Origin: Deltaproteobacteria bacterium
GTDB taxonomy: Bacteria > UBA10199 > JACPAL01
DNA length: 64,000 nucleotides
Assembly (NCBI GenBank): GCA_016180845.1
Contig: JACPAK010000001.1
Span: 86,836-150,835, forward strand
Direction: 5' to 3'
Below the pieces are notes generated by a model. It ran no database searches. It worked only from the letters and a program-made list of their open reading frames with translations, and had not been told where the DNA came from. This document shows, piece after piece, positions 16,987 to 64,000 of this stretch; within the stretch, counting starts at the first letter, position 1; each line of letters begins with the position of its first letter. The position numbers were made by a program, and so were the translations under genes.

Positions 16987-17333
16987 GGGGGCGAATTGGA
17001 TTCGACGAGAGTGCTGACGGCACCAGTCGCAGGTCGAGGTCGCTGGACCCTCGTTAAACACTGGCAAAAACCTAAATGACAATAGCGTAAGCTATGCCAT
17101 GGCTGCTTAATTAGCCGCCCGTTCTCAATGTCCGCTCCCACCGGGTGTTGATGGACGCAACATGTGGGATGCTCATCTGACCGGGACGCTGGGTCAGATG
17201 TTAAGACATACAGTGTCTGGTCTTCCGGCCCCGGTCTTGGAGGTCACCGGAAGATGAGAAACAAACCAAGGCTAAGCCTGTAGTGACTTTGCTCGATCAC
17301 CTTCGGACGCGGGTTCGATTCCCGCCGCCTCCA
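16987..17333 (+). ncRNA. ssrA: tmRNA (SsrA)
   Basis: 5' GGGGGCGAAUUGGAUUCGACG (tRNA-like domain) pairs with 3' ...GCGGGUUCGAUUCCCGC CGCCUCC A (T-arm plus acceptor). Internal tag ORF ggc aaa aac cta aat gac aat agc gta agc tat gcc atg gct gct taa at 17063-17110, giving (G)KNLNDNSVSYAMAA. Confidence 0.9.
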
Positions 17334-17398
17334 CAAAAAAATCGGCTCGAACCGTAATGAAGGAATCTTCACCGGTGGATCCGGATGTGGTAGCTTGA

Positions 17399-18553
17399 TC
17401 ATCTCCCTCGATAAAGGGCCGCAACTGGAATGCAGCGAATGTCTTCGATACTGTAATAATCTTCCCCCAAATAGAACAGGTATCCGCTCCTATTCTCTTT
17501 ATCCATACCAACAAACTCCTTGAGGTTGTTAATGTCTTTTCTGGAAGGGCGAAGGGTTGATTTTATTTCCACAGCCTTGAGTTTCTGATTTTCTACAAGA
17601 ATAAGGTCAATTTCAAAACCGGAGTTATTCTTATAAAAAAACAGCTGATCCGTTTTATAAAACCCAAGTTTCCGCCTTTTCTCGATTTCAGAGATAACGA
17701 AATTTTCCACAATCTGTCCCCTGCTACACTGCGTACCCAAAGCGGAGATCATCCCTGTATCACAATAATAGGATTTTGATCCCTTAACGTATCTCTTGGA
17801 AGGACCATGCTGATATCCTGCCAAAGTAAAACCCAAACCGGATTGATAGAGACTCTGTAAATATTTCTTTGCTGTAATGTGGTTTAAATTGGCCTCATGT
17901 CTGAAATTTTCAATCTGTGTAATGTTGCCGATGGAAAGGGCGTAATGATTCAACATGGCCCGCAGGCCCGTAACATCCTGTATATTGGAAAGTAGACTTA
18001 AGTCTCTGGTGAAGTAGGTATTGCGATAATTCTCCAATATTTCTTTTTTCTCTGTTTCATCTTTGGCCGAGACGACTTCTGGAAAACCACCATACTTTAA
18101 AAATGATTCTAATTTCCGCTGTGCTTGAAGGATTTGAGGGAGGGAAGCCTGATCTTCAAAAATGGAATGTGTTGGCTCACCGAATTCTTCCCCCCAACAA
18201 CAAGGGGGTAATTCCAAAATTTGTATGCGCCCCGCCAACGAGTCTGCCGATGCATCCAACAATCCGATTCGACTGGAACCGCTCATCAAAACAGTAGCCA
18301 CCTGTTCGTCGATGGAAAATTTTGCCGCAATCGTTAGCCTCGGAACACGCTGTATCTCATCGAGGATTACCTTGGGGTTACCTTCCAAAAGGGCCTTGGG
18401 GTCTTTCTCAGCCAAGGCGAGTACGTCCAGATCATCCAATGTCAAGTATTTGAAATCAGGGAAGTTTTTCTTTAAATACATGCTCTTTCCTGCCCTTCTA
18501 GGGCCTAAAATTAAAGCGCTTTTAGCAGGTTTTCTAAGCCATCTATCAAACAT
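17399..18553 (-). CDS. AAA-family ATPase (Walker A GPRRAGKS; AAA_14 + DUF4143-type architecture)
   Basis: 384 aa with a P-loop near the N-terminus and a C-terminal region typical of DUF4143 ATPases. Markedly AT-richer than flanking DNA. Lies 66 nt after the tmRNA 3' end. Confidence 0.65.
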   Translation of the reverse strand: MFDRWLRKPAKSALILGPRRAGKSMYLKKNFPDFKYLTLDDLDVLALAEKDPKALLEGNPKVILDEIQRVPRLTIAAKFSIDEQVATVLMSGSSRIGLLDASADSLAGRIQILELPPCCWGEEFGEPTHSIFEDQASLPQILQAQRKLESFLKYGGFPEVVSAKDETEKKEILENYRNTYFTRDLSLLSNIQDVTGLRAMLNHYALSIGNITQIENFRHEANLNHITAKKYLQSLYQSGLGFTLAGYQHGPSKRYVKGSKSYYCDTGMISALGTQCSRGQIVENFVISEIEKRRKLGFYKTDQLFFYKNNSGFEIDLILVENQKLKAVEIKSTLRPSRKDINNLKEFVGMDKENRSGYLFYLGEDYYSIEDIRCIPVAALYRGR

Positions 18554-18624: not shown

Positions 18625-21126
18625 TTAAGGAGCTTTTCCCATCCCAACCGACAGACACGACCCGGTCAGTTCCTCAATGAGATTGATCTTCAGATCATCG
18701 CCGATATTGCGAATCCGGAGTTGAGGGGTCGCATCCGGTTGGACTTCGATCGCCTCAAGTCGAAGTCGGAGCCGCTGACGGTCGAAGCCACAGGCAGCCG
18801 CCTCGCGGGGAAGGAGCGTCGGCTCTGATTCCTCGGCATCGATAAAAATCCTTTCAACAACCACACCACCCGCCTCACTGGGGGCCCTATCTTCAACACT
18901 CTCGACCGTCATCTGAATCGGCATCTTTTTCCGGACCCGGAAAGGAATCTTCACCGGTGGATCCGATAACGAAATCGCCGCCTGACCTGTCAACTCCCCT
19001 GAAAGAGACATGTGGTCAAAGAAGGCCTCCATCAATTCCAGAGAACCATCCTCGGCCGGTTGAATCTTCAGACGATGCCCCATAAAACGGGCATTCGTAA
19101 TATTTAAACGAAGATCGTTCCATCGCACAAAGGCCTGGTGTGTGGAAAAAACAGCCCCACCCGGATGTTCTGCGAGAATTTCAACCTCTCGACGTTGTGG
19201 GACGATCTGAACCGAGCCTTCGACATCCAGATCCGCTTCGGCAACCCTCGTTGAGAAAATTCCCTCACGACTCCTGTTACTGACCCGTAGACCAAGGGTT
19301 GGTAAATCGGCATGCAGCTTGGCATTGCTAATAGAAATACGAGTATGATTCGGATTTTTCTCATCGGAACCTATGGAGAGAGGCGCGATGCCGGCAAGGG
19401 GACGAAATTTAATCTGCCCTAATCCCTGAATAGCGCCATCTGGAAAGTGATACGAGACAACCCCATCCATCTGGCTCGTGATGATCCCCTCGAAGCGGGG
19501 TCTCCCATTCACAACCTGAAAGTGGACATCGGCCAGACCGGCCCCTTCGGGGATTTCATTCAACCACTTATGGTCTCCCTCGAATTGCCGTCGTTTTGCG
19601 ACAGTATGCAATGAAACCCCATGCCCATCATATTTGAGCTCGCCGGTTCGAAGCTGTTCAATCGAGACATCAGGGGTCAGACCATCAAGTCGGACGGTAA
19701 AATTCTTCACCTCACCACCTTGAGGGAGCTCCAGTTTGGAAAGGACCTTTCCGTTCGACCTCGAAATCTCTTCCAATTTTAATCCATCGTTATGATTCCA
19801 GCTAAAAGCAGCGGCAAGTTCCCTCGTATTCCGCGGATTCAGGGAAACCGCCACCTTCAGAGGGGTTGGGGTACGAGCGGTATTGCTGGCCCGAATCAGT
19901 CGCTCCGGATGGACGTATTCAATCGTCTTCAGACCGGCGATCTCGACTGTCGGTGAAAAAAGCCCACCGCGAATCGCAATCCGATGCCCCCCTGGCGGGA
20001 CCTTCCCCGTGAATTCAAGTCGCAACTTTCTCACCTTTTTTGGATCCATCCTTTTTTGAAGATCGGTCTCCAGATCGACCTCGATCGTGCGATTCGAAAA
20101 ATCACCGGTGATCTCGATGGTCGCTTGTTGCCAACGAGGGATTGTTCCCAAAAATTCTGAGTTGAGCTTTTTCTCTGTTTTGGCGGGTACATGAGCTGAA
20201 CTCTGAAATCCCCCCTTGCCCCCCTTTGACAAAGGGGGGTTGGGGGGATTTTCTTTCTCACTCCCCCCCAAAATCATCCCGACAAGCTGATGAAGATGCT
20301 CGGGGACGCGATAAACAGGAAGTCCCCTCTTCTCAAAATCCCTTTTCGTGATCCCACCGGCATCGAAGACCATCTTTCCCCCCTCCACCGTAAGATCAAA
20401 AAAGAGATAGTTCGCCGTGACGAAAACGGCCCTATCTGGCGTCTCCTGTTCCAATTTTTCACGATAGGACTCCACAAGAAGACCGGCCAACGGAAGGGCC
20501 GAAACCACCTGCAACCAGAGCGGGAGGATTTTTTTATCCTCATCAACCATCTCGACCGCTTTCCCACGTACAGAGACCCATGGGCCAACAATCGGAATAC
20601 CTGTAAAAAATTTTAGCCACGGCTTGAGCGGGATCGGACCGACCGGTGGTTTTGAGACAAGGCGAATCTCTCTGATTTCTCCTCCCTCCCCAACCTCAGC
20701 GACAAACTTGAGTTGGAAGGGGGACTGGGGGAGATCGGCCTCCAAGGGAAGTTGGACCTCGGCACGGATCTTCAAGTTCGGAACTGGCGAAGCTTCTCCA
20801 GATGCGGTTTCGAAAAGTCCTCGCACAAGTCGTTCGACAAAGGCGCTTCGCGGTTCCTCAACAACTGCTTTGTCCCGAAATCGCGCAGCGGAAACAGCAA
20901 CCGGGGGTCTTTCGCAATAAGGTTTTGAGGGAGTTGCTTGGCAATAATAATCTCTCTGACCGATCCCAAAGTGTTCCCTCGGAAGGTCCGAGAACCTGTC
21001 TGAGACCCACCTTGAAACCGAACGATTTTCCGCAGGGAAGCCTTGGACCGGAGGAAAATCGTTCGATGGTGCCGGGCGAGTTTCGCAGGACCTGGAGAGA
21101 GGACACGAGGGATCGGTCGGCCTCAT
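18625..21126 (-). CDS. large hypothetical protein (833 aa), beta-rich, no recognised domain
   Basis: Long uninterrupted ORF whose start overlaps the upstream gene's stop in an ATGA. An internal hydrophobic segment ILPLWLQVVSALPLAGLLV is present. Two in-frame palindromic repeat insertions. Confidence 0.5.
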   Translation of the reverse strand: MRPTDPSCPLSRSCETRPAPSNDFPPVQGFPAENRSVSRWVSDRFSDLPREHFGIGQRDYYCQATPSKPYCERPPVAVSAARFRDKAVVEEPRSAFVERLVRGLFETASGEASPVPNLKIRAEVQLPLEADLPQSPFQLKFVAEVGEGGEIREIRLVSKPPVGPIPLKPWLKFFTGIPIVGPWVSVRGKAVEMVDEDKKILPLWLQVVSALPLAGLLVESYREKLEQETPDRAVFVTANYLFFDLTVEGGKMVFDAGGITKRDFEKRGLPVYRVPEHLHQLVGMILGGSEKENPPNPPLSKGGKGGFQSSAHVPAKTEKKLNSEFLGTIPRWQQATIEITGDFSNRTIEVDLETDLQKRMDPKKVRKLRLEFTGKVPPGGHRIAIRGGLFSPTVEIAGLKTIEYVHPERLIRASNTARTPTPLKVAVSLNPRNTRELAAAFSWNHNDGLKLEEISRSNGKVLSKLELPQGGEVKNFTVRLDGLTPDVSIEQLRTGELKYDGHGVSLHTVAKRRQFEGDHKWLNEIPEGAGLADVHFQVVNGRPRFEGIITSQMDGVVSYHFPDGAIQGLGQIKFRPLAGIAPLSIGSDEKNPNHTRISISNAKLHADLPTLGLRVSNRSREGIFSTRVAEADLDVEGSVQIVPQRREVEILAEHPGGAVFSTHQAFVRWNDLRLNITNARFMGHRLKIQPAEDGSLELMEAFFDHMSLSGELTGQAAISLSDPPVKIPFRVRKKMPIQMTVESVEDRAPSEAGGVVVERIFIDAEESEPTLLPREAAACGFDRQRLRLRLEAIEVQPDATPQLRIRNIGDDLKINLIEELTGSCLSVGMGKAP
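20206..20252. repeat. family-1 palindromic repeat (aaatccccccTTGcccccctttgaCaaaggggggTTGgggggatttt), copy 1, intragenic and in frame
   Basis: Read directly. A near-identical copy sits at 63710-63760. Here it encodes ENPPNPPLSKGGKGG within the 833-aa ORF. Confidence 0.7.
21018..21066. repeat. family-2 hairpin repeat (13-14-bp arms ccgaacgattttcc / ggaaaatcgttcg around a 21-nt spacer), copy 1, intragenic and in frame
   Basis: Perfect inverted arms at 21019-21031 and 21053-21065. A second copy at 62277-62325 has the spacer in reverse-complement orientation. Here it encodes NDFPPVQGFPAENRS. Confidence 0.7.
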
Positions 21127-23948
21127 TGTTTATTCTCCAATGGCTTCCTTAACAACGACTCTCGAGTCAGTGGCAGCTTACTTCCACACCTCTTCAGATA
21201 AAACCACTTCCCATCTTTCTGAACCAATTCGACCTTATCTCCCAAAAGTGAAGCGGCCTGAGGATTCACAAAACCGGAGAAACAGAGACCACCGATCGTG
21301 TCTGTTCGTAACTGGCCCCCACGGATCCTTGCCGGCTCATTCAAAAGAACCTCAATGCCTCGAGCAAGAGTAAATTCTCTTCTCTTTTTCCCTATCCAGC
21401 TCCTAAACCCAACCTCCCCATGAACAAAACCGCTTGGATTTTTTTGAGGACGAATGGATCTCCTCTTTAAATCGAAGGGGATAGCGAGACCCCCTTCAAT
21501 CTGAGTCGTCACAACATACTGATCGGGTGATTCTCGATTGTAAATCCACAATTTGAGGGATGATGCCGCCGGTCTTGACAAAAAGCTCACGGCACCATTT
21601 CGGACAGAGAATTGCCCACGGTAATCCAACGCTCCCTGGCCCCAGAAAGGATGCCTCGTTGTTGGTTCAATCCCAAAAAAGGCCCTAAAACCCTCTTCGT
21701 GCCATGGGATCAGCAATTTGCCATGAAAATTGACCTGATCTCCGACAGATCCTTTCGCACAAAAGAGCTCCGCTCTTCTATTGTTCCCCTCCCAAACACA
21801 GTTGAGATCACCCACAACCCTCTCTCCTCCCCTGTAAATGTTAGAGGGGGTACGAACCGTCCGGAAGGATGAGTCTTGCTTCACCCCATTGAGAATCTCC
21901 GTCTTCCCCTCCGGCTTAAATTTCACCTCTCCCTCCGTAAATCCACGAAAGGTCCAGTCAGAAAAAATCTGTTCGAAGGCTGGGACAATTTTTAACCGAA
22001 TGGTTTCAAAATCACTCGAACCAAAGAGGGCCGTCGCCAAACTCACCACGGGCGAAGCGGCTGGCTGATTATTGAGTGACAAATGACCATCCCAGGTCAT
22101 CCGACAGGAGTTTCCTTCAGGCTCGGCCCAAAGCTGCCCACCGGAATCAAAAACCAATTCCTGTTTGAATAACGGGACCGACTCTGCCTGGAGATTAACG
22201 AGGAGGTGAGGCCCATGCCCCGGCTCCGGAGGGACCCCGCTAAGTGACGCCCGAATCCCACGAACTTCATAAGGAGTCCCCCCCTCTGAGGTCACTCTCA
22301 GATTGGCCTCTGCCTCCGCCTTCAACGTGATGAGGTTCAAAGGCGATCGGACCCGCACCACGAGGTCCGAAAAATCAAGATTGTTCTTCGGTCCATGCGA
22401 AAAGGCGAACCCCCGAAGCTCAATCTCCTCGCTCATCGGCCCCTCGACCCGATCAGGGTCGTAGTCAAAAGAGACATAACCGTCTTCCACCAGACCGCCC
22501 GTCATCGTTTCGCCTACCTGAAATTGAATCGGTCCCCCATCTGCCGATCCAATCGCAAGCTCATCGATTTCGAGCCAACTCCTCTGTAAAACAGGTTTGT
22601 CTCCAGACAGGTCCAACTGAACAGAGCTATTCAGGCGACCCGACGAGCGAAGAGATCCCAACTGAGAGGTTGGAATATTTTCCACAACATACTCGAGATT
22701 ATCGAAATAGATTTCGGCAAGATTCGGATGTCGCAGGACAATCTCGATCTCGCCTCGAAGGGCCAACGGTACCGATGTGGGAAGGGTCACATCAATATCC
22801 GACAGGACGATGGAGGTTGTTTTATCCGCTGCATTGTACGACCAATGCAGATCAAGCGTCCCTTCCGCATTTGGAATCAGGAGACTCGCCGGAAGTTTTG
22901 GGAAATTGGCGTAAGAATCCCCCTTGATCCCCTCAAAATCAAACTTGAGGAAACGTCCGGATTTTAAGGTTTCCATCAATCTCTGCCAATCAAGATGAAG
23001 GTAGCTCCTCCCGACAAGCTCATGGTTTGGTGGAGGTCTCGAATCAACCGTAATCTGTAAATCATCGAGGGTCCCGATGGGACCCTGGACCCATTTGGAA
23101 CGCTCGCCAAACCACTCCTCAATGACCTGTCTCAAGCCTGACGAGTCCTGATCGACCCAGCTTCCCATGAGCGCCTTCAAAAATCGGCGACCAAAAGATT
23201 CTTTGTAAACGGCATTTTGCCTCTGTACTGAAAATGGCTGGGGATCGCTCCTCTCTGCTGGATCAGGATAGGCGGTCAAAGCCCTCGTCCTCGGTATCGG
23301 TGTCAAAAGAGATCGCCCGAGACCGAACAAATTCAACCCCTCGGTCACCTTGACTGTCGGGAGTCCCCGATGTGCGAGATGCGGAACAACGAGTCGCGCC
23401 TGATCTGTTTCAGAAAACCTGCTGACAAAGATATCTGAAAATCGTCTCTTCCTCCTCGTCAGCCCCGCCACATCAAAACCGTAAAAAACCTCAAGCCCAT
23501 CGGTCCAAACATCCCCATCGATCTTGAACGTGTCATATCGAGACCGAGCGTTGAAGGCGAGCTCCGCCCCCTCATCCCAAGTCACATCTCCCGTCCAGCT
23601 ATCCCTTTCGACCCTTCCCTCATGAAATCTTGCCCTCACGTAATAATCGTGATTCCCAAAAAAATGATAGGTGATCGGTAAGGATCTCCGAAAGCTCATC
23701 GGCTCTCGGCGGTCGAGAAGTTTCTCCACTATCCCTTGTTTCGTTGGATAGGCAAAACCGGCTTGCTCAGCAGCTACTGCAAAGAGATCAAGCAGACTCC
23801 TGTTCGGTGTCTCAGGAGGAGCTGCGTCAAAGGCAGAACAAAAAAGGTCTTCGAAACGAGAAGGTGCGGGGGAACCATTGACCGTAGCTGTCACACCCAG
23901 ACAATCGGGTGCGATCGGAAGGAGGTTGCTACCGAAACCGAAGCACAA
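21123..23948 (-). CDS. large hypothetical protein (941 aa), no recognised domain (isolated GNHD tetrapeptide only)
   Basis: Long ORF whose start overlaps the 3' end of the MFS gene. ATGA coupling to the 833-aa gene downstream. Confidence 0.5.
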   Translation of the reverse strand: MCFGFGSNLLPIAPDCLGVTATVNGSPAPSRFEDLFCSAFDAAPPETPNRSLLDLFAVAAEQAGFAYPTKQGIVEKLLDRREPMSFRRSLPITYHFFGNHDYYVRARFHEGRVERDSWTGDVTWDEGAELAFNARSRYDTFKIDGDVWTDGLEVFYGFDVAGLTRRKRRFSDIFVSRFSETDQARLVVPHLAHRGLPTVKVTEGLNLFGLGRSLLTPIPRTRALTAYPDPAERSDPQPFSVQRQNAVYKESFGRRFLKALMGSWVDQDSSGLRQVIEEWFGERSKWVQGPIGTLDDLQITVDSRPPPNHELVGRSYLHLDWQRLMETLKSGRFLKFDFEGIKGDSYANFPKLPASLLIPNAEGTLDLHWSYNAADKTTSIVLSDIDVTLPTSVPLALRGEIEIVLRHPNLAEIYFDNLEYVVENIPTSQLGSLRSSGRLNSSVQLDLSGDKPVLQRSWLEIDELAIGSADGGPIQFQVGETMTGGLVEDGYVSFDYDPDRVEGPMSEEIELRGFAFSHGPKNNLDFSDLVVRVRSPLNLITLKAEAEANLRVTSEGGTPYEVRGIRASLSGVPPEPGHGPHLLVNLQAESVPLFKQELVFDSGGQLWAEPEGNSCRMTWDGHLSLNNQPAASPVVSLATALFGSSDFETIRLKIVPAFEQIFSDWTFRGFTEGEVKFKPEGKTEILNGVKQDSSFRTVRTPSNIYRGGERVVGDLNCVWEGNNRRAELFCAKGSVGDQVNFHGKLLIPWHEEGFRAFFGIEPTTRHPFWGQGALDYRGQFSVRNGAVSFLSRPAASSLKLWIYNRESPDQYVVTTQIEGGLAIPFDLKRRSIRPQKNPSGFVHGEVGFRSWIGKKRREFTLARGIEVLLNEPARIRGGQLRTDTIGGLCFSGFVNPQAASLLGDKVELVQKDGKWFYLKRCGSKLPLTRESLLRKPLENKQ

Positions 23949-25125: not shown

Positions 25126-26050
25126 CTCTCTTTCCGCTTCGGTCGCTCACGCTGATCAGAATGTTGGATACGACCGTGGAATAAAGGGAAAGGAACGGAG
25201 CTGGATCCCGGCAGAGGGGTGTACCCTGAAACCCTGTGTCATCACCCAGTGGGGTGCGATCCGACTCCCCAAAGAGTTTGCGAGAACCTATCGTATCGAG
25301 ATGGGGGGACTTCATCGGGGAAATTTCAGATCGATCGCTATTTTTCAGGAAAGTTCCTCTTTTGAACAAAAACTCTCCGAACGGGTTTTCAACCGCCAAC
25401 CGAACCGAAAGATCGTGAATCTGGAGCGTCTGATCGAGACGGGAAAAACCAACACCATTTATATGTACGGTCTCCTCCTGCAGTATGAGTTTGACGAGGG
25501 AGACCTCCTCGGCATTAAATTCACCTCACTCAAAAATCCGAATAACGTTCAGGAATATTTCTTTCGTTATCACCATGACGGAACCAAGTGGGATATCGAC
25601 TTCGCCTTTATCCAGCCGATTAATATCTTTCATCCCAATCCGAATGGAGTCCTGCGCGCCGCCTACTCGACAGGCGCCCTCTCCTTCTCCTTTGCACGGG
25701 CGATGGATCCGGACAAACATTACAGTTTTCTTTCGAAGGCGATGCGGGCAGTCCGTGTGAACCTCTTCACGGGAATTCTGCTCCGACGCGAGGTCGCCCC
25801 ACTCAATGGCGACAATATCGTCGAGGACCGGATCGATGCCTTTGGGGGACTTGGTCTCACCTTCCTCGATTTTATCGCCTTGGGCTATGGTGGGACGATG
25901 GCCAATTCCCCACGCACCACCTTCCCCTTTGTCGGGATCGAGATCCGCCACCTCATGGAATTCCTCCGAACCCTGAAAAAGGACACCCACAGCCGCTGGC
26001 AGCGGTATCTGAAGGAGGAAATGGAAAGGACAAGTTCAGAGAAGTTTTGA
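25088..26050 (+). CDS. secreted hypothetical protein (signal peptide MFFFLKLFFVVVISLSASVAHA)
   Basis: Cleavable-type signal peptide and no recognisable domains. May be a beta-barrel or periplasmic protein. Confidence 0.45.
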   Translation: MFFFLKLFFVVVISLSASVAHADQNVGYDRGIKGKERSWIPAEGCTLKPCVITQWGAIRLPKEFARTYRIEMGGLHRGNFRSIAIFQESSSFEQKLSERVFNRQPNRKIVNLERLIETGKTNTIYMYGLLLQYEFDEGDLLGIKFTSLKNPNNVQEYFFRYHHDGTKWDIDFAFIQPINIFHPNPNGVLRAAYSTGALSFSFARAMDPDKHYSFLSKAMRAVRVNLFTGILLRREVAPLNGDNIVEDRIDAFGGLGLTFLDFIALGYGGTMANSPRTTFPFVGIEIRHLMEFLRTLKKDTHSRWQRYLKEEMERTSSEKF

Positions 26051-27091
26051 AAGGATCTTTCGATTCATCGATGAGGTTGGGAATCGATCGATCTCCTCCG
26101 GATGAATCCATTGAGATTTCATTCGTGGAATTCGGCTCATTTGGCAGAGATAAGGGGTAATGACTAATCTCTTATTCAAAACAGAGTGCCGAATCGATCC
26201 CAAAGCACGAATCGGTCTGAAACCGAAATCCCTGACTAATCTCTCAGCCCCCCCCTCCACCATCGGAAATTCCCACATCTCTTTCAAGATCCCCTTCGCA
26301 GGCCTGCGAACCATGAGGAGAGAATCACCTTTTTGAATCAAGGCTGCCGTCATCGTGATCTTCTGAGCAGGAGCCCTTTTTGCCAATCGTGGATACAGAT
26401 CCTGTCTCCCCTTTTTACGCGCCTCACACTCATCGTAGACAGGGCAGACCAAACAGGCGGGTCGTCTCGGTGTACAAATTGTCGCACCGAGTTCCATGAG
26501 CGCCTGATTAAAATCGCCAACATCCCTATCGGGCAAAATCAGCGCGGCGAGACCCCAAAAGATCTTCTGGCCTGCAGGACTTTTGGGATCACTTCCGATC
26601 AAAAAGAGTCGTGACAGGACCCGAACCACATTCCCATCGACTACCGGGACCCTTTCCCCAAACGCGATCGAGGCAATCGCCCCGGCGGTGTAGCGACCGA
26701 TGCCGGGGAGTTGCTGCCAGTCTATTCGCTCGGACTGGCAAAGCCAGATCCTCGCTTGATTCGAGAGAGATACCGCTCTCCCTCGAGCTCCCATCTGATC
26801 AACGATTATCTTAGCTGCCTTCAATAGATTCCTCGCTCGCGAATAGTACCCGAGCCCCGACCAATACCGTAGCACCTCATCCTCTTCTGCCACTGCAAGT
26901 GATTCGATCGTCGGAAATCGTTTCAAAAATTTCTCATAATACGGAATCACCGTCTCGACCGTCGTCTGCTGGAGCATGATCTCCGAAACCCAGATCCGGT
27001 AAGGGTCTTTCGTCTTACGCCAAGGGAGGTCTCGTCGATGGGTGCGATACCAGTGAAGAAGCTTGTCTCCCCCGCGAAACTTTTTCATCAT
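26036..27091 (-). CDS. mutY: A/G-specific adenine DNA glycosylase MutY
   Basis: HhH-GPD motif LPGIGRYTAGAI, the FeS cluster cysteines CTPRRPACLVCPVYDEC, and a C-terminal NUDIX-like domain. Confidence 0.85.
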   Translation of the reverse strand: MMKKFRGGDKLLHWYRTHRRDLPWRKTKDPYRIWVSEIMLQQTTVETVIPYYEKFLKRFPTIESLAVAEEDEVLRYWSGLGYYSRARNLLKAAKIIVDQMGARGRAVSLSNQARIWLCQSERIDWQQLPGIGRYTAGAIASIAFGERVPVVDGNVVRVLSRLFLIGSDPKSPAGQKIFWGLAALILPDRDVGDFNQALMELGATICTPRRPACLVCPVYDECEARKKGRQDLYPRLAKRAPAQKITMTAALIQKGDSLLMVRRPAKGILKEMWEFPMVEGGAERLVRDFGFRPIRALGSIRHSVLNKRLVITPYLCQMSRIPRMKSQWIHPEEIDRFPTSSMNRKILSKLL

Positions 27092-28491
27092 TGCTGAGGA
27101 TTATTATTGGGAGGTGTTGGGTCAACGACCGTTTGTGAAATCTCTGTCGCGGTGACTGCTGCCCCGGAGACAGGTGTGAAGGAGGTATTAATCTTGAATG
27201 TGGTGTCTCCGTTGATTTCAGCGGGAAGTTGGAAGGCGACATTTTTTGAAATCTCGGCTCCTTTGGCAAGATTTGACATACACTCAATCTTCTGCCCCAG
27301 ATTGTTACACCCTTCAGGAGTCGATTGAATCGTAGAAGAGCCGGTCAATTCGACAATCAATTTTGCCCCTGTCAGATCCCTCTGACTGTTATTGCGAGCG
27401 AGTGCGCGAACAGTCACCGTCTGGCCGAGACCCAAGGATCCTGAGAGAATGGAGTGTTCCACAACCAACTCAGGTTGTTTTTCGACCTTGAAGAGGTGTT
27501 TATGGAGGGTAATGGTTTGATCGTCCGGACAAATCGCTGCCGGAGTAAAGGCAATCTCCCCCGAGGCGCGATCATTTAATTGGAGACAGACCGGATCACA
27601 CTTGATCTCCCCTCCCGGAATTCCTGTCGACCCACCGGTGGAAGAGGGCATGTCTACCGGAATCGTCATCTGCCGTGTCACGACATCAAACTGGAGTCCT
27701 CCTTGAGGGGAACCGCACGGCTCCAACCCTTCGGGAAGGGCAAAAGGTTCCAATTTGCATCGCACGGGGTAACAAACCGAGGCGTTGGTCCGCTCACCCA
27801 CCGTCATTGTCTTGGTCTCAGGGACAGCGATCTTGGCAATGATCTTGTCATATTTCGGAGCAACCGCGACATTGATCTCCACAACACCTATCCCCTCACG
27901 ACAGGCCTCCAAGGCACCCACCTGTTGTTTCACCCCAGAATCTGTTGTCGTCGTTTTGGAATCTGATGTGTCAGCTTTTTCGTCAGTCGTCTTTTTCTGA
28001 TCCTCGTTTCCTGAACCTTGCTGGCTTCCGGAGGTTGTCTCACCGGATGTCGTACCGCCTGATGCTGTTTGACCCGACTGCTGCTGGCTTCCCCCTGCCG
28101 TCCCCTGATTCGTCTCTAACGCCGCGAGTTGAACTTGCTGTGGTCTCGGCAAAATCGCAACTGCCTGAGAGATCAGCGAGGCCTGCTGGATCTTCACACA
28201 ATACTTGGCCTTTCCCGGGGTTTTGGCCTCTGTTGAATTTCCTGAATCTCCAGAAGGTTCGATCTTCGACGGATCAATTTCCAGTTTAAACTTTCCATCC
28301 CGATCGGTCACCACGTCTCCATGGGCCTTTCCTTCGCGATTGACCGAGATGATAACACCAGCCAAGACAGGTTCGGTCTCTTCCTTGTTAAGATTATTGT
28401 TTTCATCGAGATAGATCTGACCGTTTATCACGGTGCCACAACCGGCTGTCAGGAGGATAAAAAGGGAAATTCCAAGAAGTCGCCTATCCAT
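27088..28491 (-). CDS. lipoprotein with carboxypeptidase-regulatory-like domain, S/T/Q-rich linker and DUF11-like C-terminal repeat
   Basis: Lipobox LLTAGC after MDRRLLGISLFI. Start chosen at the internal ATG at 28491. A low-complexity TAGGSQQQSGQTASGG segment is present. Confidence 0.5.
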   Translation of the reverse strand: MDRRLLGISLFILLTAGCGTVINGQIYLDENNNLNKEETEPVLAGVIISVNREGKAHGDVVTDRDGKFKLEIDPSKIEPSGDSGNSTEAKTPGKAKYCVKIQQASLISQAVAILPRPQQVQLAALETNQGTAGGSQQQSGQTASGGTTSGETTSGSQQGSGNEDQKKTTDEKADTSDSKTTTTDSGVKQQVGALEACREGIGVVEINVAVAPKYDKIIAKIAVPETKTMTVGERTNASVCYPVRCKLEPFALPEGLEPCGSPQGGLQFDVVTRQMTIPVDMPSSTGGSTGIPGGEIKCDPVCLQLNDRASGEIAFTPAAICPDDQTITLHKHLFKVEKQPELVVEHSILSGSLGLGQTVTVRALARNNSQRDLTGAKLIVELTGSSTIQSTPEGCNNLGQKIECMSNLAKGAEISKNVAFQLPAEINGDTTFKINTSFTPVSGAAVTATEISQTVVDPTPPNNNPQQ

Positions 28492-31915: not shown

Positions 31916-32626
31916 ATGAGATTACGAACTTTACTGGGTATCGCAGCTGGCCTTGGAGGAGGTGCAGCCCTGTTAACTGTAGCATACCAGCGGCGACAGG
32001 CCGCTTCTCGTGAAATTCATAAGATGATGATCAGTCGGGATAGGATCAATTTTTATGTCAGCGATGTCAGCTATGGAAGGCCGTGTGTGAGCTCAGATGG
32101 AGGAGACTCAAACAGGACTTATTACAGCAGGACTTATTACAGTCAGATCGTCGGTAGCGCCCTCGCCCCTCATGAGCCTACCTATATCACTCCTAAAGGT
32201 TCGGAACCTACTTGCGGGTGGACTAATGAAACATATGAAGTGACTGATCCTCATCGACAAATATTCGAAACCGCCCAACGTCATTGGGGTCGCCTACAAA
32301 AGTTTTTTACCTTAACTGAAATCCGCTTGGCCTCATCCTGCCATCCCCTGACCGAGGCCGATTGGAGAGATCAACTTCACTTGAAACCGGAACCGATCGT
32401 TGACTCGGCGGTGATCTGTAAATTGGGCGCGTCACAAGCCCAACCCAATGGCGAGGCAACAGTTGTCGTAGAGTCTTTACACAATGGACGCAGCTTCTCA
32501 ACCCGCGTTTATCTGAATGTCGACGGCGCCCCTCAACCTCCTCTTGTCTGGATGGACGACTCTTGGTCTACCAATGTCAAGAAGGTGAGGGAACTACACG
32601 CCACAGGATCGTCGGGAAACGACTAA
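31916..32626 (+). CDS. hypothetical membrane-anchored or secreted protein
   Basis: RBS AAGGAGG precedes the ATG at 31916. N-terminal hydrophobic segment LLGIAAGLGGGAALL. No known domain. Confidence 0.45.
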   Translation: MRLRTLLGIAAGLGGGAALLTVAYQRRQAASREIHKMMISRDRINFYVSDVSYGRPCVSSDGGDSNRTYYSRTYYSQIVGSALAPHEPTYITPKGSEPTCGWTNETYEVTDPHRQIFETAQRHWGRLQKFFTLTEIRLASSCHPLTEADWRDQLHLKPEPIVDSAVICKLGASQAQPNGEATVVVESLHNGRSFSTRVYLNVDGAPQPPLVWMDDSWSTNVKKVRELHATGSSGND

Positions 32627-34194
32627 AGAAGCCGCTCGTACTGCTCAATCCCATACTTCCAAACCGGCACGCCGCAGTACCGATCCCCCTCGGGACAGTA
32701 CGGTTTGATCCCCGCCCCTTTTCTTAAATAACAAGGGGCAAGGATATGTCGTGCAATCCGCGGATGGATCTCCTGCACCTGTTTCAGTTCATCGATCGTC
32801 GCGAAGAAGATCTCCTCTTGCGCATCGTAACAGGCGCGCGTGCGCCATTTATGATGCAGATTCAAGAGATCCCCCGACTCCTGAAACCGGATCGGAAAGG
32901 CGTTCGGCAAGAGGTAGAGCGCGAATTCAGGAGAGACCCCATCACTCAAGAGATCATTGATCCCTCGGAAAATCTTCCGCATCGCCTCTTCGTAAACTTG
33001 TCGAGGCCCGTCGTTCTCCCGAATCAGCATTGGCGAAATATAATCCGGCTCTCCGGTATAATGAGCGAACAGGATCGGGCGCGAGGCCGGGGTCATCCGG
33101 TGACGTTGATCCTGCGAGTCAGCGGTATGCGAGATCTTTTTCTGAAAGGTGTAGTGAGGATGGGCCATCGTCCGTGTCAGCTTGGAGAGCGTTGTGAGAT
33201 TGAGCGTATCTCCAAAATAGGAATTCTTTGCCGGATTCATAACAAGATCGATCGCCTCATCATCGACAAGTTGCGCTTTGAAAAGGCCCAGCACCTCCCG
33301 CACCGACTGGGCTAGGACCGCCTCGGCGTTTGATTTGTAGTCAACGAGCCTTGAATCATGCCCGTCGAGAGATTGATCAAACTCCCGGATAAATTCCTTA
33401 TTTCTTGCGGGATTAAATCTGCCAAATTTTTCTGAAAAGAACCGGTACTCAGGCGTCTCTTCCAGAGGAATTGGATCTTTGAGCTCCTTTTTAAAATCAG
33501 GATCCGCCTCGCAGACCGCATCAACCATCTTCTGGACCACATAACGCTGCTCAAAAGGGGTATCGAACAATTCTGACAATCGGTAGTAGCGCAAAAGTGT
33601 CAGGGCACTTACCGTATGGTACATGTAAGAATGTGTCGCGACCGGCAGGATATACCGAGCGATTTCATAGGCCCGTTTTTTCAGTTTCGCTTCGTAAATC
33701 TTTTCTGACTTTTCCCGTGCCGGAAAAATTTTAAAGAATCTTCGCCGAATATCCGGAAGAAGAAGCTCAATGAGTCGATTATAGGTCTCCATCTGGAGGT
33801 TGACGACCTCAAGATACCGATCCTTCTGCCGATCCTTGAGTGGAGGGATCGTGAAATGGCCGGGGGCGACCTTCACGTATCTCTGACTCACCTGTTCTGA
33901 ATTGTAAAAAGGATGGCTGTGCAGAAACGACCAGATGAAGTGGCGTGAAATTTTATCGAGCGCAAAGACAAAACTTCCATGCTGCCGGGTTGTCAGATGT
34001 CCCGCCTCGAGGGTTGACTTCGCAATCTTATCCCGAAGCGCAAGGGCCGCTGAATCCTTAACGACATCCGCCGTCGTCAGGATCCCCTTCGAGGAGTAAC
34101 AGGTCCTCGCCGCAGCGATAGAGAGATTGTATGGTTCCCCAATAAACCCAGCTAAGGTAACAACAGGTGGCTCTGAGAGGAAGACTTCTGTCAT
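32623..34194 (-). CDS. thyX: FAD-dependent thymidylate synthase ThyX, long (523-aa) form
   Basis: ThyX signatures AARTCYSS, GH..T..HGSFVF and the RH...S....SQRY motif (ISRHFIWSFLHSHPFYNSEQVSQRYV). Confidence 0.7.
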   Translation of the reverse strand: MTEVFLSEPPVVTLAGFIGEPYNLSIAAARTCYSSKGILTTADVVKDSAALALRDKIAKSTLEAGHLTTRQHGSFVFALDKISRHFIWSFLHSHPFYNSEQVSQRYVKVAPGHFTIPPLKDRQKDRYLEVVNLQMETYNRLIELLLPDIRRRFFKIFPAREKSEKIYEAKLKKRAYEIARYILPVATHSYMYHTVSALTLLRYYRLSELFDTPFEQRYVVQKMVDAVCEADPDFKKELKDPIPLEETPEYRFFSEKFGRFNPARNKEFIREFDQSLDGHDSRLVDYKSNAEAVLAQSVREVLGLFKAQLVDDEAIDLVMNPAKNSYFGDTLNLTTLSKLTRTMAHPHYTFQKKISHTADSQDQRHRMTPASRPILFAHYTGEPDYISPMLIRENDGPRQVYEEAMRKIFRGINDLLSDGVSPEFALYLLPNAFPIRFQESGDLLNLHHKWRTRACYDAQEEIFFATIDELKQVQEIHPRIARHILAPCYLRKGAGIKPYCPEGDRYCGVPVWKYGIEQYERLL

Positions 34195-40927: not shown

Positions 40928-41000
40928 GGGCCTGTAGCTCAATTGGCAGAGCCCCCGGCTCATAACCGGGTCGTTGGAGGTTCGATTCCTCCCGGGCCCA
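40928..41000 (+). tRNA. tRNA with anticodon CAU (elongator Met or lysidine-modified Ile2; not initiator)
   Basis: Cloverleaf readable: acceptor GGGCCUG/CGGGCCC, D-arm AGCUCAAUUGGCAGAGC, anticodon stem CCCGG-CUCAUAA-CCGGG, T-arm GGAGGUUCGAUUCCUCC. Begins 2 nt after the rpoD stop. Confidence 0.85.
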
Positions 41001-42454: not shown

Positions 42455-42807
42455 GAGAGCTGGTCGGGCAACTACGCTTTCAAGCCTTGTTGCAAAAGGT
42501 TTGGAGTGAGGAAAGTCCGGGCTCCACAGGACGCCGCACAGGTTAACGACCTGGCATCGCGAGATGACGGAAAGTGCAACAGAAAGTATGTACGGTCCGC
42601 CGTAGCTTTAGCGAAGGCGGATGCTGTAGTGAAATCCGGTAAACCCTGCGGGGAGCAAGATCAAGTAAACCGTACCCCTAAAACCCATTGGTCCGATGGG
42701 GTTCCTGAAAAGGACGGTACGGAGGGTTGATCGCTAGAGGCGTTTGGTAACAAACGTCCCAGAGGAATGGTTGCCGAAGACAGAACCCGGCTTATAGACC
42801 AGCTCTT
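42455..42807 (+). ncRNA. rnpB: RNase P RNA, bacterial type A
   Basis: P1 pairing GAGAGCUGGUC ... GACCAGCUC. Universally conserved GGAAAGUCCGGGCUCCACAGG (P4 region), AGUGCAACAGAAAGUA, UAAACCCUGCGGGGAGCAAG and the 3' ACAGAACCCGGCUUA. Confidence 0.9.
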
Positions 42808-42833
42808 ATTTTCCTTTCTCTATTTTCTTAAGA

Positions 42834-60641: not shown

Positions 60642-61748
60642 TTAATCCTGCCCTACCGCTTTTCCGGAATTAAAGGTCAGGTCATCGAGGATAAATTCCG
60701 CACTGCCCGATGTCGACTCGCTTTGAGCGGTTATAGCCAGAAAGGCACCTGTTGGCATGTTGGTCAAAGAGGTGTCCGATCCGATCTGAACGAAGGAACC
60801 AGAGGAGAGTTTTCTAAAGCACTGAAATGTCGACCCCGACCGAACGACTCGGATCGAAATATTCGGTGTAAAACTTCCGGAAGCACTGCCTGGCTGATCG
60901 CAAGCGCTATCTGTGCTGAAACCCCCATTGGAAGAGCCCTTATAGCAATCGATCGACGTCAAAGCACACTGAAAGAATTTATCTTTGTTCTCCTCAAGAG
61001 AGGAGACGACGATCAATTTCACCGCGGCATTCATGCTGTCCACAGTCATGGAACTCACTGTAATCTGGGCATCGAAATCCCCCGAAACCTCCTTGGAGGC
61101 AGAAGGGAGGATATTGAAGGCGTCGAATTTGGAATTGTAGGTGGTCATATCAAACTTCAACTGACCCCCCGTGATCGTAACCGCCGCCGCCTCGCTGTTG
61201 GCGACAGTGTCTGTCTGATTCGTGGTATTGTTAAACTTGTAACAACTCGACGTGTCCTTCGAATAATCATCGGAGCTGGTACAGGAGGTCGAAGAGGAGG
61301 CGCCGTCTGTTGTTGTTACCGTCACTGTCGTCTCAGCCACTTCATTGGAACTTTTATCAACAACCCCTGAGACCAAAAAGGTACATGAGGCCCCGGCGGG
61401 CAGGGCCTGACTCGGCAGGAAGCAGCATTCATTGTCGACCACCGCATCGGTATCGACCGAGGTGTTGATCGATCCGGAGGTTGCTGTCCCATCACAGATC
61501 AGGGTAAGGGTTTCGGTGGTACAGGTAGTCAGGTCGACAGATTCTGTAAATTTGACGCAAAAATCGGTAGAGGGGCTCACGGTATCATTCGTCTGGATCG
61601 TATTTCCATCCGAGTCATTTGCCGTCCCTGTCGAAGAGGCGGCTGCATCGTCATCTGCACCGGAATCTGTTTTTTTGGAATTATCGACAAGCTCCGAGGC
61701 ACAGGCAAAAAGGAATAACACCACGAGAATGAGTGATACCTTTGACAC
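60642..61748 (-). CDS. Ser/Thr-rich lipoprotein of unknown function
   Basis: Signal peptide plus lipobox (VLFLFACAS). Strongly S/T/D-rich low-complexity body. Confidence 0.45.
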   Translation of the reverse strand: MSKVSLILVVLFLFACASELVDNSKKTDSGADDDAAASSTGTANDSDGNTIQTNDTVSPSTDFCVKFTESVDLTTCTTETLTLICDGTATSGSINTSVDTDAVVDNECCFLPSQALPAGASCTFLVSGVVDKSSNEVAETTVTVTTTDGASSSTSCTSSDDYSKDTSSCYKFNNTTNQTDTVANSEAAAVTITGGQLKFDMTTYNSKFDAFNILPSASKEVSGDFDAQITVSSMTVDSMNAAVKLIVVSSLEENKDKFFQCALTSIDCYKGSSNGGFSTDSACDQPGSASGSFTPNISIRVVRSGSTFQCFRKLSSGSFVQIGSDTSLTNMPTGAFLAITAQSESTSGSAEFILDDLTFNSGKAVGQD

Positions 61749-61849: not shown

Positions 61850-64000
61850 TCATGTGGTTATAAGGCTTGGTGGGACAGTGGGGGGTGTCGGATCCGCATA
61901 AGAAGGTAAATTTGTACCCTTTTCAGTCGGTTTTTTTGACAAATTCACAACTGATTTCAAAAGGATCCCTTCCAGAAATTCCGGGGCAAGACGTCCCCAA
62001 ATCAGAGGCTCTTCCAGGCACTCATTCAACTGAATTATAAATTCGCCGGTGACCTCGACACCAACAGGGGCTGCCGGACCAAAAGAGATCTTCGGATACG
62101 GATGAAACCCCTCTGAGAATTTAACCGGCAAGTTGGCGCGAGAGACCGCTCGACGGATATGATCGACAAATTCGAGGTGACTCAAGAAGGCGGCAGGACC
62201 GGTTTTGGAGTAGGTGCAAGTAAATGACCAGCCTGTGCGAGCCTTGCTCCGGCCTCCTGCGAAAATCGCGGCACCATCCGAACGATTCTCCTCTGGTCCA
62301 AGGCTTCCCGGCGGAGAATCGTTCGGTATTATTGTGGCGACGTCCTCGGAGGCCTTCACAAGATCTCTCACAGACTGGTTTAAACTGTATTCCCGAACCT
62401 CGGTCGTCGTCTTTTTCTTCACCAATTTCTGATTTTCATCATAAACCGGCAGTTCATACGACCGATTCCGGACCGCCTTATAATCACAAACCCCGCAGAT
62501 CGTGCATTTCCCGGTAGAACAATCATCGATGAAGGCCTCGTGAAGCGATGCTTGATACTCATCCCAAAGCCACTCCTTATCCATCTCAACAAAGAGATGA
62601 TCCCAAGGCAAAACCTCTTCTCTCTCTCGTCGCCGTTCGACATAGAACTTGGGATCGATCCCACATTCCTCCCAAGCCTCCTGCCAGAGATGGAATTTCA
62701 ACCCCTCATCCCATTCGTCAAAACGACACCCCTTTTCCCAGGCCCGTACGATGAGGCCTGAAAGCCGGCGATCCCCCCTGGAAAAAACCCCCTCCAGATA
62801 GGTCGTATCGAGTCGATGAGGTTTGAGATGCAACTTTCTCGAACGAATCCGGGACTCGAGAAGATCCAGTTTTCGAACCGATTCTTGCAGAGAACTCTGG
62901 GACTCCCATTGAAAAGGGGTAAACGGTTTCGGGACAAAAGACGAAACACCGAGATTGATCTCGGCAGATCGGTTGCGTTGAAGCCCTTCTCGAAGGGTAC
63001 GATAACCCAGCTCGGCGATCTCGATGACGTCCTCATCGGTCTCTGTCGGAAGTCCAATCATGAAATAAAATTTCATGAGACGCCATCCAGCGGAAAAGAC
63101 CGCCCTGACCGTGTTCATTAAATTTTCTTCGGAATTTCCTTTATTAATCACCCGCCGCATCCGGTCTGTCGCTGCCTCAGGAGCAATCGTGAAACCGGTC
63201 TTACGTACCCGCTTGATCTCCTCGATCAGGGCTGGGGTCAGTTGTTCCACACGTGTCGCCGGTATCGAAATAGCAACCCTCTTCTCTTGAAATTCATCCA
63301 TCAGATCTCTTGCGAGAGGGGTGAGGCAATCATAATCGCCGATCGAGAGAGAGACGAGACTGACCTCCTCCTGACCGGTCGCCGCAATCTGATTCCGAAC
63401 AATCTGCTTCACCGTCTCAGGAGAGCGTTGCCTCTCGGGACGATCGATATAACCGGCCTGGCAGAAACGACACCCACGCACACATCCGCGCTGAACCTCG
63501 ACGCCAACACGGTCATGGATCACCTTCGTATTCGGAAGGATCGGTTTTTTTGGGTAGTAGGCCTTGTCCAGATCTGAGACGACACGCTTTTTGATCCCTT
63601 TGTAATCTTCTAAGAGCGACTTGATCTCACGAATTGTTCCATCATCGTTATAAGTTGGTTCGAAGAATGAGGGGATGTAGACGCCGGGGATTTTGGAGAG
63701 TTGTTTCAAAATCCCCTCCGGCCCCCCTTTGACAAAGGGGGGTGAGGGGGGATTTTTCCAATTCTTCACAATCTCGCAAATCTCCAGGATCGCCTCCTCA
63801 CCGTCTCCAATCAGGATCGCATCGAAGAAATCGGCGACCGGTTCGGGGTTGTATGCCCCAGTTCCGCCTCCAAGGATGAGCGGATAGCTATCGTCCCGAT
63901 CTTTGGAATAGAACGGGATCCCGCCGAGATTGAGGACCGTCAGGATATTCGTGTAAGTCAGTTCAAACGGAATCGTGATCCCGAGGATATCAAGTTCGCG
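61850..64000 (-). CDS. radical SAM protein (B12-binding-like N-terminal domain + radical SAM core + C-terminal extension), 5' end beyond window
   Basis: CxxxCxxC motif GCVRGCRFCQAG. The reading frame stays open upstream of the listed Met through 64000, with a B12-binding-like region (LILGGGTGAYNPEPVADFFDAILIGDGEEAI). It contains both repeat families in frame. Confidence 0.75.
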   Translation of the reverse strand, partial: RELDILGITIPFELTYTNILTVLNLGGIPFYSKDRDDSYPLILGGGTGAYNPEPVADFFDAILIGDGEEAILEICEIVKNWKNPPSPPFVKGGPEGILKQLSKIPGVYIPSFFEPTYNDDGTIREIKSLLEDYKGIKKRVVSDLDKAYYPKKPILPNTKVIHDRVGVEVQRGCVRGCRFCQAGYIDRPERQRSPETVKQIVRNQIAATGQEEVSLVSLSIGDYDCLTPLARDLMDEFQEKRVAISIPATRVEQLTPALIEEIKRVRKTGFTIAPEAATDRMRRVINKGNSEENLMNTVRAVFSAGWRLMKFYFMIGLPTETDEDVIEIAELGYRTLREGLQRNRSAEINLGVSSFVPKPFTPFQWESQSSLQESVRKLDLLESRIRSRKLHLKPHRLDTTYLEGVFSRGDRRLSGLIVRAWEKGCRFDEWDEGLKFHLWQEAWEECGIDPKFYVERRREREEVLPWDHLFVEMDKEWLWDEYQASLHEAFIDDCSTGKCTICGVCDYKAVRNRSYELPVYDENQKLVKKKTTTEVREYSLNQSVRDLVKASEDVATIIPNDSPPGSLGPEENRSDGAAIFAGGRSKARTGWSFTCTYSKTGPAAFLSHLEFVDHIRRAVSRANLPVKFSEGFHPYPKISFGPAAPVGVEVTGEFIIQLNECLEEPLIWGRLAPEFLEGILLKSVVNLSKKPTEKGTNLPSYADPTPPTVPPSLITT
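62277..62325. repeat. family-2 hairpin repeat, copy 2 (arms ccgaacgattctcc / ggagaatcgttcgg, 21-nt spacer inverted relative to copy 1)
   Basis: Read directly. Perfect 14-bp inverted arms. Encodes NDSPPGSLGPEENRS in the radical SAM gene. Confidence 0.7.
63710..63760. repeat. family-1 palindromic repeat, copy 2 (aaaatcccctccggccccccctttgacaaaggggggtgaggggggattttt)
   Basis: Read directly. Encodes KNPPSPPFVKGGPEG in the radical SAM gene, parallel to ENPPNPPLSKGGKGG in the 833-aa gene. Confidence 0.7.

Follow-up and report, generated by a model that had tools for sequence, protein, structure and literature searches.

The 64,000-nucleotide stretch of a Deltaproteobacteria bacterium genome analyzed here (hereafter, the window; lineage UBA10199, GenBank assembly GCA_016180845.1, contig JACPAK010000001.1, positions 86,836 to 150,835) contains two copies, denoted A and B, of a palindromic element, family 2, each embedded in an open reading frame (ORF). 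With a probability that we put at roughly 55%, family 2 is a non-autonomous coding palindrome acting at the DNA level, comparable to the Rickettsia palindromic elements (RPEs) and resembling the repetitive extragenic palindromes (REPs), which persists only at permissive sites. Under this reading, copies would spread to unrelated loci, mobility being the origin that we infer for them, and would be retained where ~160 extra bases do no harm, that is, in intercistronic spacers, interdomain linkers, surface loops, and protein N-termini; within genes, the ribosome would read through a copy in whichever open frame the insertion created. As is typical of RPE-like elements, family 2 is found at several unrelated loci per genome, forms a long imperfect hairpin, and keeps the reading frame in its coding copies.

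The most conspicuous part of each copy is a stem-loop that the first-pass annotation of this stretch had described and that is indeed present in the sequence, with the arms, loops, and encoded peptides given there. In copy A, the 5′ arm ccgaacgattttcc (21018-21031), the loop gcagggaagccttggaccgga (21032-21052), and the 3′ arm ggaaaatcgttcg (21053-21065) make up an apical stem of 13 perfect base pairs (21019-21031/21053-21065), and in copy B, the arms ccgaacgattctcc and ggagaatcgttcgg form 14 bp around a loop at 62292-62312. The earlier coordinates hold for A on the plus strand (21018-21066), whereas those for B on the minus strand (62277-62325) were one base too low and are corrected here to 62278-62326; the two hairpins lie in opposite orientations inside their ORFs, as had been noted. 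When the B loop is read as the reverse complement of the A loop, 19 of the 21 positions are identical, and the tips as a whole match at 45 of 49 positions, the four differences being split evenly between stem and loop, with the two in the stem (T/A versus C/G) amounting to one compensated pair. Exact matches to the arms occur at only four places in the window, those of A and B, and the A/B pair (blastn E = 2e-15) is the longest inverted repeat of the 64 kb (59 nt, 86%). Across the hairpins, the two host ORFs encode the peptides NDFPPVQGFPAENRS and NDSPPGSLGPEENRS, and a plus-strand ORF, reading PQGSLGPEENRS, is open across the hairpin as well.

Family 2 is a genuine dispersed repeat family. 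Copies were searched for by pattern scans, with the 15-nt core of the tip loop as the pattern, by orthologue look-ups, and with nhmmer, the scanned genome collection being one without the source genome. In total, 17 copies were recovered, A and B included (nhmmer E-values from 1e-20 to 1e-44), all of them from related metagenome-assembled genomes (MAGs) and metagenome contigs. The source genome itself has a third copy, C (locus L025, protein P0124), in the aminodeoxychorismate synthase gene pabB on the same 804,652-bp contig. Among the relatives, a copy is present at the orthologue of the A locus (L019), in the same linker of a radical-SAM protein as B (L001, L020, and L024), in pabB (L005/L011 and L026), and in an acyltransferase of a MAG labelled UBA10199 (L007). 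The L001 copy, from the radical-SAM orthologue of another MAG, is 87% identical to A over ~122 nt. Seven copies come from one metagenome (L008, L009, which equals L015, L012, L013, L014, L017, and L018), the organism concerned being a member of the same broad clade; its acyl-CoA dehydrogenase and carboxyltransferase match those of L020 and L022 at 74-78% identity. Judged by these sequence searches, all copies are confined to one clade of uncultivated groundwater bacteria. The loop-pattern scans of genomes, metagenomes, and viral contigs also returned chance matches without arms (L003, L004, L006, L010, L016, and L027), the viral-contig scan gave no copy, and a blastn search with copy A gave no match to plasmids, phages, or 5,426 Escherichia coli genomes. 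Thus, the first-pass annotation, which allowed that the stem-loops could be coincidental local palindromes if no further copies existed genome-wide and orthologues shared the sequence, was right to prefer a repeat family, given copy C and the copies in relatives.

The annotation had described a unit of ~49 bp, but both homology and base pairing run far beyond that length, and the hairpin is the tip of a rod of ~155-165 nt. Homology past the hairpin is evident when A is aligned to the reverse complement of B, and ~190 nt folded around each window copy with RNAfold give a single rod-like hairpin. Whole rod A occupies 20956-21120 on the plus strand, antisense to its host gene (-81.8 kcal/mol, z -4.3; nhmmer E = 8e-33), and is matched by the orthologous copy in L019; whole rod B occupies 62227-62379 on the minus strand, in the mRNA sense of the radical-SAM gene (-91.7 kcal/mol, z -7.3; E = 2e-27). 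From the outside inward, the rod consists of an outer stem of 10-25 bp, the sequence of which differs from copy to copy, two conserved modules (5′, TCCGAGRACCTGTCTGAG; 3′, GCGAGTTYCGCAGGA) that face each other across internal loops, and the apical hairpin with its conserved 21-nt tip loop. In A, the outer stem is formed by a copy-specific 5′ arm at 20956-20980, which is 60% identical to its counterpart in L019 with the differences compensated, and a 3′ arm at 21104-21120, recognized from the fold and the L019 comparison. The two arms, both on the plus strand like the rest of this copy, enclose a conserved core of basal modules and apical hairpin (20981-21103; 87% identical to L001), within which the 5′ basal module TCCGAGAACCTGTCTGAG lies at 20987-21004 and is kept in A, L001, L019, L020, L024, L007, and the OBLQ copies, and the 3′ basal module GCGAGTTTCGCAGGA, delineated by module alignments, lies at 21076-21090. 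On the minus strand, B has the 5′ basal module CCTCCGAGGACGTCGCCAC at 62334-62352, which belongs to a subtype with a 7-nt deletion common to C and L005, and the 3′ basal module GCGATTTTCGCAGGAGG at 62253-62269, located by alignment to A. No real match contains the 49-nt hairpin without the flanking modules, so the hairpin is a module of the element, not the element itself; the basal modules occur without the tip in L020 and with a different tip in L024 and L026. Neither nhmmer --max nor fuzzy module searches found further family-2 copies in the window.

The helices of the rod covary. Across 14 copies, the 13 pairs of the apical stem are 94.5% paired, with double changes at 11 of the 13, a level that none of 500 shuffles reached, and slid controls yielded 38-58%. 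Over all 17 copies, 775 of the 817 helix positions are Watson-Crick pairs, and the mismatches comprise 8 of the G:T type, 11 of the A:C type, and 23 others. Given that there is no excess of G·U, the constraint on pairing is symmetric with respect to the two strands, and the pairing looks more compatible with DNA, or with both transcripts, than with one RNA alone. The sequence itself is conserved in the loops rather than in the stems: mean pairwise identity of the tip loop is 93% among the coding-clade copies and 97% among the metagenome copies, versus 48-62% for the stems of the coding-clade copies and, for the outer arms, 22-25% (coding-clade) and 25-30% (metagenome). If the element is a mobile coding palindrome, complementarity of the arms would be kept by selection for hairpin or cruciform formation or, alternatively, by templated correction of one arm from the other, in the form of template switching inside quasi-palindromes. 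The most plausible role of the tip loop and the pair of internal-loop modules would be that of recognition determinants for a trans-acting protein encoded outside the window.

The same covariation, together with the conserved loops, is what would be expected of a functional cis-acting RNA in the mRNAs, namely, an RNase III or RNase E/G processing site or an mRNA-stability element that would set relative expression within operons or between the halves of fusion proteins. The long near-perfect duplex is of the type cut by RNase III, the metagenome copies sit exactly in spacers of core operons (atpH|atpA, thiE|thiD, and ispDF|gltX), and conservation of the A core far exceeds that of the surrounding coding DNA. 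Moreover, the radical-SAM host gene is located just upstream of an RNase E/G gene, the two being adjacent in L001 and L002 and separated in the window by a single uncharacterized ORF at 60642-61748. Nevertheless, we consider an RNA function improbable: the element occurs in both orientations relative to transcription, even at one and the same site (L024 versus B, L001, and L020; C versus L005), tip-less variants are retained, no Rfam family matches, and G·U-type mismatches are not more frequent than A·C-type ones (8 versus 11), although tolerance of G·U would be expected in a structurally selected RNA. An Rfam 15 scan of the window detected only transfer-messenger RNA (tmRNA), RNase P RNA, and a tRNA, with no family reaching its gathering score for the element, and permissive scans of A and L013 yielded only hairpins resembling miRNA precursors, at 20-30 bits against thresholds of 100-114. 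A strand-specific RNA was rejected on the additional ground that the sense fold is better by 2-10 kcal/mol in the coding-clade copies and worse in the metagenome copies, and a terminator on the ground that there is no U-run. Complementarity of the tip loop to tmRNA, RNase P RNA, or the rest of the window did not exceed chance.

The two host genes in the window are of different kinds. Copy B lies in a gene on the minus strand (61850-64000, truncated by the end of the window) for a TIGR03960 B12-binding radical-SAM protein fused to DUF2344 (P0001, 815 aa), 716 codons of which are within the window; the GTG at 63769 listed as its start is internal. The copy sits just ahead of DUF2344 (residues 694-790 of P0001), in the hypervariable stretch that links this domain to the radical-SAM core, and the ORF is continuous through the copy. 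Copy A corresponds to codons 3-57 of an 833-codon ORF (18625-21126, minus strand) that has no Pfam domain. NCBI places the start of this gene at the GTG at 20826 (P0121, 733 aa), and on that annotation A would be intergenic. Yet the 22 codons upstream of this GTG are conserved in P0122/L019, with differences distributed 4/1/10 over the three codon positions and nine synonymous versus three non-synonymous codon changes, and the only in-frame start further upstream is the ATG at 21126, which overlaps the TGA of the preceding 941-codon gene (21123-23948, minus strand) as ATGA, an arrangement shared by L019. From these three features of the sequence, the database start is probably too far downstream, the true start probably is ATG 21126, and A, which is antisense to the gene, is probably translated as part of an extended N-terminus. 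The in-frame placement proposed in the first-pass annotation thus holds for B directly, and for A in the sense that it lies within the 833-codon ORF with translation probable.

Elsewhere, too, the ORFs continue through the coding copies and the domains on both sides are intact, as in B, L001, L020, and L024 (radical SAM), C, L005, and L026 (pabB), and L007 (acyltransferase). In pabB, C and L005 sit between the Anth_synt_I_N and Chorismate_bind domains, and the L007 copy occupies a loop of the acyltransferase domain. The orientation of the element relative to the host gene is of both kinds, and the coding copies are read in three frames on two strands, giving GSLGPE in B and L005, AGKPWT in L001, and VQGFP in A, L019, C, and L007; hence, there is no conserved peptide. 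Between B and L001, a deletion of 7 nt together with an insertion of 1 nt has kept the ORF open. The metagenome copies, in contrast to those in coding linkers, are intergenic, carry stop codons in several frames, and take up the spacer between the stop codon of one gene and the start or ribosome-binding site of the gene that follows (thiE|thiD, ispDF|gltX, atpH|atpA, and acyl-CoA dehydrogenase|carboxyltransferase). A coincidental palindrome or a protein-selected peptide module could have been suspected from the window, which has only two copies with similar-looking peptides, but this explanation is effectively refuted by the homologous copies detected with nhmmer and the covariation of the stems, as well as by the use of several frames and the stop codons of the intergenic copies. 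Consistently, a phmmer search with the 55-aa peptide encoded by A against 1.84 billion proteins retrieved only an unrelated tandem-repeat protein (P0243).

The same two genes also carry the palindromes of a second, separate family. Family 1 is a simple hairpin of ~48 nt (AAATCCCC..CCCCTTTGACAAAGGGG..GGGGATTT; encoded peptide NPPxPPxxKGG) that has no extended rod and occurs exactly twice in the window, at 20206-20252 in the 833-codon ORF and at 63709-63755 in the radical-SAM gene. Co-mobilization of the two families, one of the possibilities raised initially, is unlikely because they are 0.7 and 1.3 kb apart in the respective host genes and because the orthologous locus L019/P0122 retains family 2 and has no family-1 insert. 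At the second site, the relatives P0002 and P0009 have family 1 in a doubled or variant form. Another of the possibilities, insertion-permissive regions, is the explanation that we favor: the two families share host genes because both genes have permissive stretches, as exemplified by the hypervariable linker that houses B, and the pabB linker behaves likewise in relatives. Family-1-like peptides are found in the pabB linkers of P0125, P0128, and P0134, and many relatives have either family-2 or family-1-like sequences in their radical-SAM and pabB linkers. The distribution is patchy, in that radical-SAM orthologues of similar distance have the element in P0002, P0003, P0007, P0009, and P0012 but not in P0004 and P0006, in the linkers of which module searches found no remnants. 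P0007 is a partial protein from a 7,970-bp contig that ends ...GKPWT, inside the tip loop of the element; the contig probably breaks at the repeat, an assembly effect. A different in-frame insert (PYPLLPSPLAGEGGPAARQVSEGG/FPSSLSSPPVEEGKPAVRQAGEGGG) is present in the C-terminal third of pabB products, within the chorismate-binding domain, in P0123 (L005:1260-2675) and P0125, and is absent from the other orthologues.

Comparison of copies at the same and at different sites indicates that the sequences have been exchanged and rearranged. B and L001, which occupy the same site in different genomes, belong to different subtypes and share only 74% core identity, compared with 87% between A and L001, which are at different sites in different genomes. 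B is, by alignment, a chimera in which an A-type tip is joined to a base of the C/L005 subtype with its 7-nt deletion, which points to gene conversion between copies, and segments would be exchanged among copies in this manner. In L024, the element is inverted at the radical-SAM site relative to B, L001, and L020, and at their shared pabB site C and L005 point in opposite directions; a copy might flip in place through recombination between its own arms.

Several observations count against a mobile repeat that persists wherever it is tolerated. A Pfam search of the 52 long ORFs of the window, a housekeeping region (nuo, dnaG, rpoD, obg, proB, thyX, and RNase G), found no transposase, integrase, or HUH enzyme, and neither the gene tables for all copies nor Pfam searches on the flanks of five metagenome copies revealed a transposase-type gene beside the element. 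Target-site duplications are absent from the seven intergenic copies, the termini are the least conserved part of the element (22-30% identity between the outer arms of different copies, against 90-97% in the center), with no terminal inverted repeats kept among the copies, and no clean insertion is demonstrable, the linkers and spacers being too variable to align to empty sites. Core identity within the source genome is only 77% for A/B, 75% for B/C, and 67% for A/C, so that nothing points to recent transposition in that genome. The loop core is invariant in the five copies that were found without the loop pattern (A, B, C, L001, and L019). Finally, the A core is 95.9% identical to that of L019 over 123 nt, compared with 55-73% for the flanking coding DNA and 60-76% for the outer arms, and among the 55 pairs of the rod, 46 are unchanged, five show compensated double changes, and two show single changes. 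Such conservation at one locus is not predicted for a merely decaying selfish repeat and, at the level of this sequence comparison, points to constraint. The coding-palindrome reading accounts poorly for how strongly the loops and modules are retained at a locus, which leaves some room for a selected DNA hairpin or cruciform signal and for an RNA-duplex function that does not depend on orientation, both of them improbable.

These features would be accommodated by a selected structured signal in coding sequence, in which the invariant tip loop GGGAAGCCTTGGACC and the modules are read by a dedicated protein, either on a DNA hairpin or cruciform or on one or the other transcript, and the stems need only pair, an interpretation that we regard as possible but on balance unlikely. 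Should it be correct, family 2 would represent either a new class of hairpin-recognizing mobile elements without conserved ends or target duplications or a domesticated chromosomal signal long retained at orthologous loci, and it is the latter option that the A/L019 comparison fits (96% in the core versus 55-73% in the neighboring genes). A related proposal, which we find doubtful, is that of a domesticated DNA hairpin or cruciform, the loops of which are bound by a host protein involved in recombination, replication, nucleoid organization, or a comparable process, with purifying selection acting at each locus. Watson-Crick pairing on both strands, which cruciform extrusion requires, speaks for such a site, as do the conserved tip loop and modules on stems that drift with compensation and the orthologous retention of the A core; furthermore, its function would not depend on orientation. 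It is harder to reconcile with the patchy presence among equally related orthologues, with variants that lack the tip or have another one, with the low identity and different subtypes of B and L001 at one site, and with the sparseness of the element (two copies per 64 kb), and no candidate binding protein was found.

The outer arms raise a separate question, because they could have originated by compensated drift, by extension of the palindrome, or by insertion of the element into pre-existing hairpins. In the last case, only the ~120-nt core would be the element, having inserted specifically into the loops of terminators, REP-like stems, or other such hairpins, a behavior known from some insertion sequences. 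Identity does drop sharply at the edge of the core (A versus L001), and in L012, L014, L008, and L018, all located directly after stop codons, the outer arms look like A-tract/GC stem ... GC stem/T-tract. However, coding linkers, in which a terminator is not expected, contain the same architecture (B, C, L005, and L007), the outer arms are alike between some copies (L012 and L014; L008 and L013), suggesting that they travel with the element, orthologous arms change by compensated substitutions, and the apical stem shows the same kind of variation although nothing has inserted there. We therefore deem this origin of the arms very unlikely.

Comparison with known repeat classes delimits the element further. 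Like attC sites, which are imperfect palindromes of 57-141 nt recognized as folded single strands, with structure more strongly conserved than sequence, family 2 is palindromic and lies between co-directional genes. The conserved boxes of attC sites are RYYYAAC and GTTRRRY. In attC sites, the boxes are outermost and the center is variable, which is the reverse of the arrangement here; in the examined loci, the end boxes, the cassette context, and the integrase are all missing, and the hosts are core housekeeping genes rather than cassettes, so an attC site was dismissed. Translational bypass elements (byps and the T4 gene 60 type) interrupt the frame or carry stops, and ribosomes hop over them. 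Family 2 is not of this kind because none of the coding copies interrupts its ORF. Enterobacterial ERIC sequences were discarded in view of the blastn search against the 5,426 E. coli genomes.

Closer parallels exist among the REPs, RPEs, and transposable elements of the miniature inverted-repeat type (MITEs). REPs and REPINs are likewise palindromic and dispersed, follow stop codons between co-directional genes, and are sometimes intragenic (PMC3733652); intragenic REPs are known, for instance, at the same site of orthologues, as in recB of Xanthomonas, and REPs are thought to act as single-stranded DNA hairpins recognized by a tyrosine transposase (PMC3733652). Unlike family 2, with its ~160 bp, untagged ends, and sparse distribution, they are 20-40 bp long, have a GTAG/CGTC tag at the end, and are usually abundant, and we therefore do not assign family 2 to the REPs proper; no gene for a REP-associated tyrosine transposase (RAYT; Y1/HUH) is present in the 64 kb or in the retrieved copy loci. 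MITEs such as Correia/NEMIS, ERIC, and RUP resemble family 2 in size class, in forming a long RNA or DNA hairpin, in occupying intercistronic sites where they can alter the fate of the mRNA, and in occasional in-frame fusions (PMC10969869; PMC3184786), but their defining features are target-site duplications and terminal inverted repeats that are conserved. Both were sought here and neither was found, and we therefore do not class family 2 as a classical MITE.

RPEs, repeats of ~150 bp that sit in frame within genes unrelated to one another (Ogata et al. 2000, summarized in PMC10969869 and PMC3733652), offer the best class-level match: both are dispersed long-hairpin repeats (~100-150 bp in RPEs) found in intergenic regions and in frame in unrelated housekeeping genes, with the host protein apparently functional, no known transposase, and several families per genome. 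The likeness is one of class, across unrelated lineages. RPEs reportedly carry a terminal CGTC tag (PMC3733652), a motif that in family 2 is only internal and limited to the B/C/L005 subtype, and are reported to lose repeat identity over time (PMC6649704), whereas here pairing of the arms remains at ~95% even in old copies retained at orthologous sites; furthermore, in family 2, it is the stems that vary and the loops that are conserved. Coding palindromes of Nematomorpha mitochondria, the closest parallel as regards the upkeep of arm complementarity, for which the proposed means of maintenance is template switching or arm conversion (PMC6649704), also are long inverted repeats in translated genes with actively preserved complementarity of the arms and with gains and losses between species. 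Those palindromes, however, are perfect, both of their arms encode conserved protein, and they do not belong to a dispersed sequence family, whereas family 2 is defined by a shared core and resides in non-conserved linkers.

So far, in-frame palindromic repeats have mostly been regarded as an oddity of Rickettsia. The present case shows the phenomenon to be broader: the housekeeping genes of an uncultivated, free-living lineage from groundwater contain two such families, which recur in the same linkers across relatives. The elements inflate and diversify protein linkers, shift predicted start codons, as in the 833-codon gene with its probably wrong database start, and probably break assemblies. 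With variable stems that are always paired, invariant loops, and no G·U bias, they also provide a test case for distinguishing selection for a recognized hairpin from mechanical arm-to-arm correction.

Some other features of the window and its relatives deserve mention. A perfect 24-nt direct repeat (AAGGAATCTTCACCGGTGGATCCG; 17360-17383 and 18942-18965) brackets a gene for an AAA_14/DUF4143 ATPase (17399-18553), its first copy being located just 3′ of the tmRNA gene and the second in the 3′ end of the 833-codon ORF; it looks like an attachment-site duplication of a small insertion beside tmRNA. The structural RNA genes of the window are those for tmRNA (16987-17336), tRNA-Met (40928-41000), and a bacterial class A RNase P RNA (42456-42810). 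In a MutY-like ORF (26039-27100, minus strand), the match to positions 1-97 of the HhH-GPD profile stretches over residues 38-176, which leaves ~40 extra residues that may be another in-frame insert; a palindrome lies nearby at 26551-26590. The ThyX ORF (32626-34194, minus strand), with 523 codons and two Thy1 stretches, is about twice the usual length, and L020 encodes the same form (543 aa).

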